A stretch of 4,051 nucleotides of DNA, from assembly GCF_024223415.1 (NCBI RefSeq), contig NZ_CP100507.1. One strand, 5' to 3'. The translations under genes were made by a program, and so were the position numbers. Positions 1,164-4,051 of this stretch are shown in pieces (positions within the stretch are counted from its first letter, which is position 1; each line of letters opens with the position of its first letter). The notes below the pieces were generated by a model. The model worked only from the letters and a program-made list of their open reading frames with translations. It made no database searches and had not been told where the DNA came from. This DNA comes from Escherichia coli. Lineage in GTDB: Bacteria; Pseudomonadota; Gammaproteobacteria; Enterobacterales; Enterobacteriaceae.

Positions 1164-1176
1164 CTTGCTGTGTAAA

Positions 1177-1201
1177 CGAAAAAACCGCCTTGCAGGGCGG
1201 T
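1177..1201 (-). terminator. RNA I rho-independent terminator (stem 1184-1189/1196-1201, loop ttgcag, T-run on the minus strand over 1177-1183)
   Basis: accgcc / ggcggt 6-bp GC-rich stem flanked by an A-run on plus (U-run in RNA I); equivalent to the pBR322 RNA I terminator hairpin. Confidence 0.6.
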
Positions 1202-1278
1202 TTTTCGAAGGTTCTCAGAGCTACCAACTCTTTGAGCCGAGGTAACTGGCTTGGAGGAGCGCAGTCACCAAAACTTGT
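1178..1278 (-). ncRNA. RNA I antisense copy-number control RNA (about 100 nt)
   Basis: Minus-strand start near 1278 (ACAAGTTTTGG, compare pBR322 ACAGTATTTGG) and end at the hairpin plus T-run at 1177-1201; fully complementary to the 5' end of RNA II as in ColE1. Confidence 0.7.
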
Positions 1279-2958: not shown

Positions 2959-3225
2959 TTGGTTAAATTACTATTGGTGAGAAATGAATATTTCAATAAA
3001 AACAATGACTTAAAAACCGTTGCTCGGTTTGACGGTAAAACCTTAAGAGATGCCTTTTCGAGAAAAATAGCGACTTTTGATGGCAAGGTTTTAAGGGATG
3101 CCTCTTTAAAAAAAGTAGCAACCTTTGACGGTCAGAATTTAAGAGATGCTAGTTCAAAAATTATCCTGAGTGCCGATGCTGAGGTTGGGATTGTTGTTAT
3201 GGCCTTTGTAGCTGAGTTGATTTGA
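2959..3225 (+). CDS. Hypothetical small protein with three tandem 16-aa repeats and a hydrophobic C-terminus; non-ATG start (TTG 2959, or TTG 2974 / GTG 2977)
   Basis: Translation ...TVARFDGKTLRDAFSRK IATFDGKVLRDASLKK VATFDGQNLRDASSKI ILSADAEVGIVVMAFVAELI. Differences between repeat copies fall largely on synonymous third positions (Ala gct/gcg/gca; Asp gac/gat; Gly ggt/ggc; Arg aga/agg; Lys aaa/aag; Thr act/acc), a coding-type pattern. No in-frame ATG and no clear SD; in-frame stop at 2950-2952 limits the 5' end. Confidence 0.5.
   Translation: MVKLLLVRNEYFNKNNDLKTVARFDGKTLRDAFSRKIATFDGKVLRDASLKKVATFDGQNLRDASSKIILSADAEVGIVVMAFVAELI
3019..3162 (+). repeat. Tandem direct repeat, 3 x 48 bp (units 3019-3066, 3067-3114, 3115-3162)
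   Basis: Conserved cores tttgacggtaaaaccttaagagatgcc / tttgatggcaaggttttaagggatgcc / tttgacggtcagaatttaagagatgct at exact 48-bp spacing. Confidence 0.85.
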
Positions 3226-3282: not shown

Positions 3283-3310
3283 GTGACAGAAAGATAAAAA
3301 ACTTTATAAT
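3283..3310 (+). promoter_or_regulatory. Sigma70-like promoter facing the retron: -35 GTGACA (3283-3288), 16-bp spacer, -10 TATAAT (3305-3310)
   Basis: Perfect -10 consensus and 5/6 -35 at canonical spacing; predicted start about 3317. Lies about 190 nt upstream of a1, so it may drive the retron ncRNA-RT-csp transcript, but no nearer promoter could be identified by eye. Confidence 0.4.
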
Positions 3311-3507
3311 AATCAGCGAAGCGGGCGAACCACGCCTGGCTCTCGCTCTTTAACAAATGGTTACGTGTATGTTGCGCAAGGAAACCGATGCCTTGTTTTT
3401 AAGGCGATCTCGCATGAGATCATGACCGGCCTGGCCGCTAATTAATGGTGAGAACGCCCCTGAGCGTGTATCAGCACTAAAAGAATAGCGACGATTGTCT
3501 GGCAATG

Positions 3508-3520
3508 TGAGTTAAAAGTC
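3508..3520. repeat. Retron a1 inverted repeat (left arm)
   Basis: 13-bp perfect inverted repeat partner of 3780-3792; does not extend on either side. Confidence 0.6.
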
Positions 3521-3594
3521 CCAAAGAGCCAATAGAGTTTTTCCTTGCTTTCCTACTGGTCTGGCAAAATTTCATAACCAATAGGAGTTGCATC

Positions 3595-3777
3595 ATGTTT
3601 ATTATCAACATCAACATTAACGTAACCAAGAGCTCTTCATCTTGTTCTGGAGACGGTCAGATGAAGAAAAAAAGAGAGGTTGGCTCTCTGGAGGCACTGA
3701 AAAAAACACAGTTTTTGTTTTCTATGTGCTTGATTATGTTTAAAGTAATAGATTACGTATCGAAACTTTTTAACTAA
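3595..3777 (+). CDS. Hypothetical 60-aa ORF lying entirely inside the a1-a2 (msr-msd) region; possibly not translated
   Basis: ATG at 3595 preceded by AGGAG (3583-3587) at 7-nt spacing; stop TAA at 3775-3777. Protein MFIINININV... is low-complexity and Lys-rich. Position inside the putative retron ncRNA argues that it may be fortuitous. Confidence 0.2.
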   Translation: MFIINININVTKSSSSCSGDGQMKKKREVGSLEALKKTQFLFSMCLIMFKVIDYVSKLFN

Positions 3778-3779
3778 TC

Positions 3780-3792
3780 GACTTTTAACTCA
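3780..3792. repeat. Retron a2 inverted repeat (right arm), 6 nt upstream of the RT ATG
   Basis: Exact reverse complement of 3508-3520. Flanked by a near-direct repeat actttttaact (3765-3775) / acttttaact (3781-3790). Confidence 0.6.
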
Positions 3793-3798
3793 AACATC

Positions 3799-4051
3799 AT
3801 GAATAAACCCAGGTTTAATGGAACTCCTGTTGCATCTTTGGATTCTTTATCTGCGATGTTAGGCATAGAAAGAAAAAGATTGGACTGGATAGTCAAGTCT
3901 GTATCGATGTCGTACAAGCAGTTTAAGGTTGAAACAGGGAAGAATAAAAAAGAAAGGCAAATTTTTGAACCCAAGAGATCTTTGAAAGGAATTCAAAAAA
4001 AAATAAATAAAGAGATTTTTGAGAAAATTGATTACCCTCATTATTTGCATG
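3799..4051 (+). CDS. Retron-type reverse transcriptase, N-terminal 84 codons (continues past the window end; see 1..887)
   Basis: ATG at 3799, open to the last base of the window. Translation MNKPRFNGTPVASLDSLSAMLGIERKRLDWIVKSVSMSYKQFKVETGKNKKERQIFEPKRSLKGIQKKINKEIFEKIDYPHYLH is colinear with the N-terminal region of retron RTs (RQIFEPKRSLKGIQ resembles the Ec86-type IYQPSRELKALQG segment as I recall it). No Shine-Dalgarno is evident, so the start is the first in-frame ATG after a2. Confidence 0.85.
   Translation, partial: MNKPRFNGTPVASLDSLSAMLGIERKRLDWIVKSVSMSYKQFKVETGKNKKERQIFEPKRSLKGIQKKINKEIFEKIDYPHYLH

Follow-up and report, generated by a model that had tools for sequence, protein, structure and literature searches.

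The probable native promoter and structured 5' RNA domain of a type V (Se72/Sen1-family) retron on an Escherichia coli plasmid

Introduction

Retron-Sen1 (Se72) resides on a 4,053-bp plasmid of Salmonella Enteritidis (Rychlik 2001; Pilousova and Rychlik 2011) and was typed in the classification of Mestre 2020, in which type V is defined by a cold-shock-domain (CSD) protein. It has been reported to yield constitutively a small DNA of 72 nucleotides (nt) that depends on the reverse transcriptase (RT), and Se72 guards RecBCD, the trigger being lambda Gam. The present analysis concerns a retron of this family in a stretch of 4,051 nt from Escherichia coli (contig NZ_CP100507.1 of RefSeq assembly GCF_024223415.1), the whole of which is referred to as the window, and in particular the promoter-like element at 3283-3310, which lies about 190 nt upstream of a1, the 5' arm of an inverted repeat (a1/a2) flanking a small open reading frame (ORF) ahead of the RT gene. 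The window and the Retron-Sen1 plasmid share plasmid type and size as well as the order small ORF, RT and CSD effector, while the host records of the plasmid studied here are E. coli.

Mestre et al. trimmed their alignments of the non-coding RNA (ncRNA) at a1/a2. A 2019 review excluded Se72 for want of an apparent priming guanosine, noted that no 2'-5' linkage had been observed, and mentioned a 'hairpin-containing ORF', which matches the hairpin at 3692-3731 and the ORF between a1 and a2 described below. In a retron census (Khan et al., bioRxiv 10.1101/2024.01.25.577267), the predicted "Retron-Sen1 (Se72)" ncRNA equals 3358-3626 of the window; the outcome for reverse-transcribed DNA (RT-DNA) was undetermined for Sen1, and no RT-DNA was obtained from a type V retron of Haliea, the construct of which lacked the CSD gene and the 5' domain, its ncRNA being bounded by an a1/a2-type repeat. 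The census ncRNA comes from a record of Salmonella Heidelberg and departs from the window only in two homopolymer lengths, namely CCC/CCCC at about 3457-3460 and TT/TTT at about 3569-3571.

On comparison of related loci, 3283-3310 is probably the native promoter of the type V retron, and the following ~190 nt probably constitute the 5' domain of the retron RNA and not a leader. The original prediction had regarded the distance to a1 as odd for a retron promoter; the 190 nt would no longer be anomalous, since the retron RNA would start at the promoter. The promoter of the Se72 family, the domain that follows it and the two crossing sets of co-varying helices reported here are not described in the accessible literature.

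The probable promoter

The element is composed of two hexamers and a predicted start, all on the + strand, the hexamers being found by a sigma-70 scan and by alignment.

3283-3288, + strand: -35 hexamer GTGACA
3305-3310, + strand: -10 hexamer TATAAT, after a 16-nt spacer
3316-3319, + strand: predicted transcription start, purines 6-9 nt past the -10 hexamer, placed by sigma-70 geometry

GTGACA-16-TATAAT is an 11/12 sigma-70 match and the sole site of at least 10/12 in the window on either strand, in agreement with the original prediction, which had given the hexamers and spacer at the correct positions and had called the element the strongest one facing the retron. In Markov simulations, a match of at least 11/12 was expected 0.087 times per window over both strands, and one on the + strand no more than 300 nt before a1 occurred in 0.6% of the AT-rich simulations, equivalent to a chance P of ~0.006 for strand and place.

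Alignment of 16 type V loci, the RTs of which are 44-100% identical, disclosed a pattern of constraint confined to the hexamers. The TGA core of the -35 hexamer (3284-3286) is invariant or at least 90% conserved, and T3305, A3306 and T3307 of the -10 hexamer are invariant or nearly so; the spacer and all sequence upstream of the -35 hexamer have diverged, and nothing aligns before it. A promoter is present at the aligned position in at least 15 of the 16 loci, and in 12/16 no sigma-70 match within the 650 nt before the RT scores better. L021 has TTGACA-17-TAGGAT, and the matches in L029 and the Vibrio locus L019 are weak. In 11/16 loci exactly 10 nt separate the -10 hexamer from SL-A, the first conserved hairpin of the following RNA. 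Among divergent retron plasmids, homology begins at ~3270 in Klebsiella and Serratia (87.6% identity), at ~3294 in Pectobacterium and Hafnia (68%) and at ~3318 in Edwardsiella (72%).

Because the hexamers are conserved and the spacer is free, while homology starts at the -35 hexamer and the distance between the -10 hexamer and SL-A is fixed, 3283-3310 is very probably the retron module's own sigma-70 promoter, from which transcription would begin at about 3316-3319; it is an ordinary promoter as such. A candidate alternative immediately before 3508 was rejected, as no site of at least 9/12 exists there; GCGACG-18-TTAAAA is weak, and its start would fall inside a1.

The probable 5' domain and its local hairpins

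Transcription from ~3316-3319 would yield a single RNA reaching from a non-coding region through the small ORF and the RT to the CSD effector. The portion at 3317-3507 is conserved in the form of near-invariant blocks alternating with variable stretches, and it contains the following local features.

3322-3338, + strand: SL-A, a 6-bp 5'-terminal hairpin CGGGCG-AACCA-CGCCTG, with 4/6 pairs compensated; a hairpin of this kind with GYTCTTTRAA behind it follows the promoters of two type VI loci
3345-3357, + strand: motif GCTCTTTAACAAA, near-invariant in type V and also found in the type VI loci L031 and L032; no co-varying partner was found for it
3390-3405, + strand: SL-B, hairpin GCCTT-GTTTTT-AAGGC, with 3/4 tested pairs compensated
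3406-3421, + strand: SL-C, hairpin GATCTC-GCAT-GAGATC with two GATC sites, 100% paired
3422-3430, + strand: invariant motif ATGACCGGC, for which no co-varying partner was found
3431-3488, + strand: variable region with lineage-specific hairpins, here ACGC-CCCTGA-GCGT at 3454-3467 (alignments and minimum free energy (MFE) fold)

RNAalifold returned three local hairpins in this region, SL-A, SL-B and SL-C. In the 16-sequence alignment their positions are 98% paired, compared with 33-44% when the partners are slid, and they include 9 compensated pairs, as opposed to 0-1 with slid partners, a result equalled by none of 500 shuffles. SL-C is the inverted repeat that the original prediction had noticed between the promoter and a1, and it is retained in Vibrio as the compensated GAACTT/AAGTTC.

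Both arms of SL-C carry a GATC (Dam) site, at 3406-3409 and 3418-3421. The stem sequence is invariant in 17/18 loci, a conservation beyond the need of pairing alone.

A protein-coding leader was rejected, the short ORFs on both strands being unconserved and the indels not multiples of three. No Rfam family was matched in 3283-3800, and a scan of the whole window returned RNAI of the plasmid origin plus noise. Likewise, no intrinsic terminator was found on the + strand in 3317-3507. The suggestion in the original prediction that these 190 nt might be a regulatory leader was consequently not borne out: neither terminator or attenuator, nor Rfam match, nor conserved ORF was recovered, and two co-varying helices connect the region to downstream retron sequence.

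Long-range helices and a second, crossing set

These two helices, LR1 and LR2, each join an arm in the 5' domain to an arm beyond a1.

3358-3365, + strand: LR2 5' arm TGGTTACG, pairing with 3619-3626; start of the census Retron-Sen1 ncRNA
3377-3383, + strand: LR1 5' arm CAAGGAA, pairing with 3541-3547
3541-3547, + strand: LR1 3' arm TTCCTTG, beyond a1, pairing with 3377-3383
3619-3626, + strand: LR2 3' arm CGTAACCA, within small-ORF codons 9-11; the census ncRNA ends here

LR2 was located starting from the bounds of the census ncRNA, which spans 3358-3626, so the census group used LR2 as a1/a2. Its counts, and those for the fold of the Shine-Dalgarno sequence and some motifs, were made on 18 related type V sequences, including L021 and L029, which were added from a metagenome motif scan. 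A helix of 6-12 bp is formed in 18/18 sequences, in many differing compensated versions; 92.1% of its cells are paired compared with 20-42% in slid alignments, and 21 cells are compensated compared with 0-2. LR1 is 96.8% paired compared with 43-64% when slid, with independent compensations in three lineages (L011, L014 and Edwardsiella), and in Vibrio it is fully compensated as GTAGAAA/TTTCTAC. The outermost arm, the 5' arm of LR2, lies ~48 nt past the -10 hexamer, and SL-A ends 19 nt before it. The original prediction had also allowed that the true msr start might lie upstream of the a1 it identified, and this fits the present data, since conserved structured RNA begins ~5 nt past the predicted start and the outermost arm is found at 3358-3365.

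A second set of helices surrounds the small ORF.

3508-3520, + strand: a1 TGAGTTAAAAGTC, 5' arm of the helix flanking the small ORF, pairing with 3780-3792; 6/13 pairs compensated
3521-3533, + strand: S2 5' arm, the inward continuation of a1/a2, pairing with 3679-3691; 8/11 pairs compensated
3679-3691, + strand: S2 3' arm, pairing with 3521-3533
3692-3731, + strand: co-varying hairpin inside the small ORF; 6/6 tested pairs compensated
3780-3792, + strand: a2, beginning 2 nt past the stop codon of the small ORF (3775-3777)

The a1/a2 repeat had been proposed by the original prediction at these positions, and its complementarity, together with the compensated pairs, identifies it as a genuine helix on comparative grounds; it brackets the small ORF and is unlikely to mark the ncRNA's outer boundary. 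Along the RNA the arms follow in the order LR2 5' (3358), LR1 5' (3377), a1 (3508), S2 5' (3521), LR1 3' (3541), LR2 3' (3619), S2 3' (3679) and a2 (3780). The LR1/LR2 set crosses the set of a1/a2 and S2 with no nucleotide in common, and the RNA would therefore adopt either a pseudoknot or two alternative folds.

The small ORF and its possibly buried start

The region bracketed by a1/a2 contains the small ORF, a hairpin over its Shine-Dalgarno (SD) sequence and one copy of a direct repeat, the other copy being located immediately 5' of a1.

3497-3505, + strand: DR1, direct repeat GTCTGGCAA, immediately 5' of a1; changes in step with DR2
3551-3586, + strand: hairpin in MFE folds, in which a pyrimidine tract pairs with the small-ORF SD sequence AGGAG (3583-3587); DR2 is near its apex
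3559-3567, + strand: DR2, second copy of GTCTGGCAA; changes in step with DR1
3595-3777, + strand: small ORF of 60 amino acids (aa) between a1 and a2, conserved with its ribosome-binding site (RBS) in all loci

The small ORF carries a coding signature: among the codons that differ between loci, 79 are synonymous and 155 non-synonymous in its own frame (34%), compared with 26/196 (12%) and 18/195 (8%) in the other frames. The predicted protein has the conserved pattern MFxxNINxxVTKS...SGD...KK.EIG..EV followed by a hydrophobic tail; it matched nothing in NCBIfam, PADLOC or Pfam, and the ORF is unannotated in the RefSeq records of the plasmid.

In the MFE folds of all 17 sequences with a called SD sequence, 60-100% of the SD sequence is paired; none was called by the script in Vibrio, where AAGGAGG is visible by eye. 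In a MAFFT alignment the SD hairpin is 75.9% paired compared with 52-64% when slid, a value equalled by 19-23 of 500 shuffles. Such sequestration would repress translation of the small ORF. The hairpin belongs to the 71 nt between the 3' arms of LR1 and LR2 (3548-3618), which hold DR2 as well as the small ORF's SD sequence and start codon. In every lineage they fold as a pair of hairpins, one pairing the SD sequence and one containing the AUG. The length of this segment is close to that of the 72-nt Se72 DNA, a correspondence that is taken here as a lead and not as a result.

DR1 and DR2 change identically across the lineages (T to A, G to A and A to G), and no complementary partner of either exists in the operon RNA. 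As no such partner is available to two co-varying repeats, a shared, trans-acting protein ligand is suggested by the sequence comparison.

The preferred model and its alternatives

According to the model favoured here, the 5' domain would comprise, in order, SL-A, the GCTCTTTAAAA motif, the 5' arms of LR2 and LR1, SL-B, SL-C, the variable region and DR1. LR2 would serve as the terminal inverted repeat of the ncRNA, 3366-3547 would be the msr-like part, and the 71 nt at 3548-3618 would be the likeliest template, while a1/a2 with S2 would form a second helix bracketing the small ORF, in an RNA that is pseudoknotted or switches between two folds. A more elaborate and rather doubtful extension may be envisaged, in which a two-state or pseudoknotted hybrid RNA has the 71-nt SD and start-codon hairpins clamped by LR1 and LR2, the 72-nt Se72 DNA is copied from these hairpins, translation of the small protein is gated by reverse transcription or by refolding into a1/a2 and S2, and the two co-varying GTCTGGCA repeats are docking sites for the RT or the CSD protein. 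Gating of this kind, if true, would connect RecBCD/Gam sensing with a third, hidden protein component.

Several observations weigh against the favoured model. The single-sequence folding energy of the leader is ordinary (z = -0.56) and not distinctive on either strand, and for this reason the case for structure rests on covariation, which is drawn from just 18 related sequences. The ratio of G.U to A.C cells, 40 vs 13, is a clear strand-specific excess overall, but the figures of 12 vs 7 in the leader helices alone represent a weak one. LR1 is A/U-rich, and its covariation score of 0.109 is barely over the 0.091 of the -1 slid control; since the score is so little above one slid control, the evidence for LR1 as a real helix is graded as good, though short of conclusive. 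The LR2 5' arm ends in G in 12/18 sequences and in A in 6/18 and thus offers no invariant G, whereas G3518 in a1 is invariant. Finally, no convincing terminator lies between the 88-aa ORF upstream (2959-3225) and the promoter in the window, although a plausible one occurs in the Klebsiella plasmid, and read-through transcription could therefore also feed the retron.

The most serious alternative accepts the promoter as real but takes a1/a2 as the true priming helix and msr-msd boundary, so that the 190 nt would be an accessory 5' extension that docks by a pseudoknot through LR1 and LR2 for RT recognition or RNA stability. With 24 tested pairs, a1/a2 and S2 show the strongest covariation in the RNA, G3518 stands at the 3' end of a1 with GTTAAAA before it, a2 sits shortly before the RT, as it does in classical retrons, and the census picked an a1/a2-type repeat as the ncRNA boundary of the Haliea type V retron. 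However, the Haliea construct so bounded gave no RT-DNA, the census itself picked LR2 for Sen1, and in Retron-Sen3 the repeat that flanks the small-protein (SP) gene is separate from the terminal repeat of the ncRNA; moreover, the segment between the LR1 and LR2 3' arms measures 71 nt, near the 72-nt Se72 DNA, and no structural boundary exists 72 nt upstream of a2. This alternative is considered unlikely.

Cold-shock genes are known for long structured 5' untranslated regions (UTRs), and the pyrimidine-rich GCTCTTT is the kind of sequence bound by cold-shock domains. These facts, together with the distance of the promoter from a1, speak for 3317-3507 as a conventional regulatory 5' UTR separable from the ncRNA, such as an attenuator, a riboswitch, a thermosensor or a site of CSD autoregulation like the cspA leader. 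Such a function is judged quite improbable, in view of the missing + strand terminator in 3317-3507 and the missing Rfam match in 3283-3800, the links that LR1 and LR2 make with the msr and with the beginning of the small ORF, and the occurrence of the same SL-A and GTTCTTTRAA start in type VI retrons, which have no CSD protein. Least probable of all, and scarcely credible, is a fortuitous promoter match, with the retron read from mobA, the 88-aa ORF or an unrecognised promoter and 3283-3507 conserved for a DNA-level role in plasmid maintenance or recombination. The number of sites of at least 9/12 in the window is not enriched (9 vs 7.1 +/- 2.5 in shuffles), and no strong terminator precedes the site in this plasmid, both of which favour that explanation; against it stand the conservation of the hexamers but not of the spacer or upstream flank, a module that always begins at the -35 hexamer in many unrelated contexts, compensatory changes and G.U pairs indicative of RNA, and the absence from the sigma-70 scan of any other + strand site of at least 9/12 between 3000 and 3800.

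Should the favoured model hold, a functional RNA of the Se72 family that starts at the promoter, and not at the inverted repeat beside the small ORF, would correct the current delimitation and might explain why no DNA was obtained from the census type V construct bounded by the a1/a2-type repeat alone. Efforts to clone or engineer Se72-type retrons, or to explain their DNA product and RecBCD guarding, would then be advised to include 3283-3507.

Plasmid, gene content and distribution

The window is a complete circular ColE1-type plasmid, and complete E. coli plasmids, NZ_CP066843.1 and NZ_AP027712.1 among them, are 100% identical to it. When it is compared with further ColE1 plasmids, the backbone falls at ~1134-2970 and the cargo runs from ~2970 round to 1134; the RefSeq annotation of identical plasmids lists a reverse transcriptase, a "retron Se72 family effector", Rop, MobA and one hypothetical protein. 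Captured chromosomal DNA was rejected as an origin, for blastn of 5,426 E. coli genomes recovered the same plasmid family only.

3799-4051, + strand: retron RT, N-terminal part; the ORF crosses the circular junction
1-887, + strand: retron RT, C-terminal part, continued from 3799
892-1095, + strand: CSD effector, starting 5 nt past the RT stop
1176-1276, minus strand: RNAI of the ColE1-type origin (Rfam scan)

The linear window, being circularly permuted, splits the RT gene, and linear ORF lists therefore miss the full-length RT. In PADLOC the RT scores 423 bits with RT_V (E = 2.6e-127, residues 1-373), 242 bits with RT_VI and 219 bits with RT_IV, while the effector scores 85.2 bits with NCBIfam NF038236 retron_eff_Se72 (cut-off 82) and 85.7 bits with PADLOC CSD_V. 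Because the RT_V, CSD_V and retron_eff_Se72 models are matched, the plasmid is assigned to the carriers of type V (Se72/Sen1-family) retrons from its sequence; an RT of the type V clade, a CSD effector directly after the RT and an ncRNA with terminal inverted repeats are all present.

The 88-aa ORF on the + strand just before the promoter contains a 48-nt tandem repeat in 2.8 copies at 3028-3160, which encodes the peptide repeat FDGKxLRDA. In sister plasmids of 4,148 bp this interval is ~97 nt longer, probably owing to two more repeat units. The sole family match of the ORF is a sub-threshold one to Pfam Bflower_2, and it lies outside the retron module in other lineages.

Twelve further type V loci, 44-78% identical in the RT, were gathered via RT homologues, and a scan of genome contigs with the RT alignment returned at least two loci. 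An ORF of ~61 aa (which was not called in the Vibrio locus), the RT and a CSD gene recur in all the additional loci, the plasmid or chromosomal surroundings of which are otherwise unrelated; the module occurs on ColE1, Col(Ye4449) and Rep3 plasmids and also beside major facilitator superfamily (MFS) transporter genes on large contigs. Eleven loci emerged from the metagenome motif scan, namely two new ones (L021 and L029), two chance ones (L020 and L027) and seven near-duplicates or partial copies of known lineages, and two scans of viral contigs for the leader motifs gave no matches. L020 and L027 carry a 22-base SL-C pattern in coding contigs of high GC content, where no RT is near and no further similarity exists; they are probably chance matches, although two were found against a hand estimate of ~0.3.

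Comparison with known retrons

With the classical msr-msd organisation of Ec86 (Eco1), the present locus shares a promoter before the ncRNA, terminal inverted repeats, 5' hairpins and an RT downstream. Unlike Ec86, it has no invariant priming G at the end of the outer repeat, its msr-like part extends over ~180 nt, an ORF is embedded in the RNA, and a second, crossing set of helices is present.

The closest parallels in design are found among the sister type VI retrons. Retron-Sen3 (cl2075; bioRxiv 10.64898/2026.04.27.721009), which was compared by description and not by sequence, possesses just before its 5' inverted repeat a small hairpin of 18 nt, the counterpart here having 17 nt, and that 18-nt stem-loop is essential for defence. 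In Sen3 the SP RBS is buried in the ncRNA and a second inverted repeat flanks the SP gene, like a1/a2 here, and the Sen3 and Se72 families have RecBCD/Gam sensing in common. In contrast to Sen3, the type V retron is devoid of a helix-turn-helix (HTH) antitoxin gene and has a CSD effector, and the 3' arm of its outer repeat lies inside the small ORF.

SL-A, as a hairpin upstream of the LR2 5' arm with four of its six pairs compensated, fits the position that clade 3's 5'-conserved stem-loop takes. Two type VI loci, on an Alteromonas plasmid (L031:600-700) and a Pseudomonas plasmid (L032:524-622), display a sigma-70-like promoter, a GC-rich hairpin ~8 nt further on and GTTCTTT(A/G)AA, and this start aligns with the type V promoter, SL-A and GCTCTTTAAAA, which suggests, at the level of sequence, a start module common to clade-3 retrons.

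The hyRNA of Retron-Vpa2, also of type VI (bioRxiv 10.1101/2025.10.22.683967), unites a template and a repressed small-protein gene on one structured transcript; it resembles the present RNA in having conserved direct repeats in loops and a clade 3 RT, and differs in that its SP gene comes after the msr-msd, the ORF of the present RNA instead overlapping the folded region. The HTH gene of the type VI set, which consists of an SP homologue together with an HTH protein of the Cro/C1 type, is absent from the plasmid, and hhalign detected no homology between the small protein and a type VI SP (probability 0.1). Given the CSD effector, the unrelated small protein and the lack of the HTH gene, the Se72-family RNA would be regarded as working like the type VI extended RNA without being a member of that type. 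The type VI design, with its 5' stem-loop, its small protein encoded within the RNA behind a buried RBS and its two long-range pairings that compete, would thereby be extended to type V.

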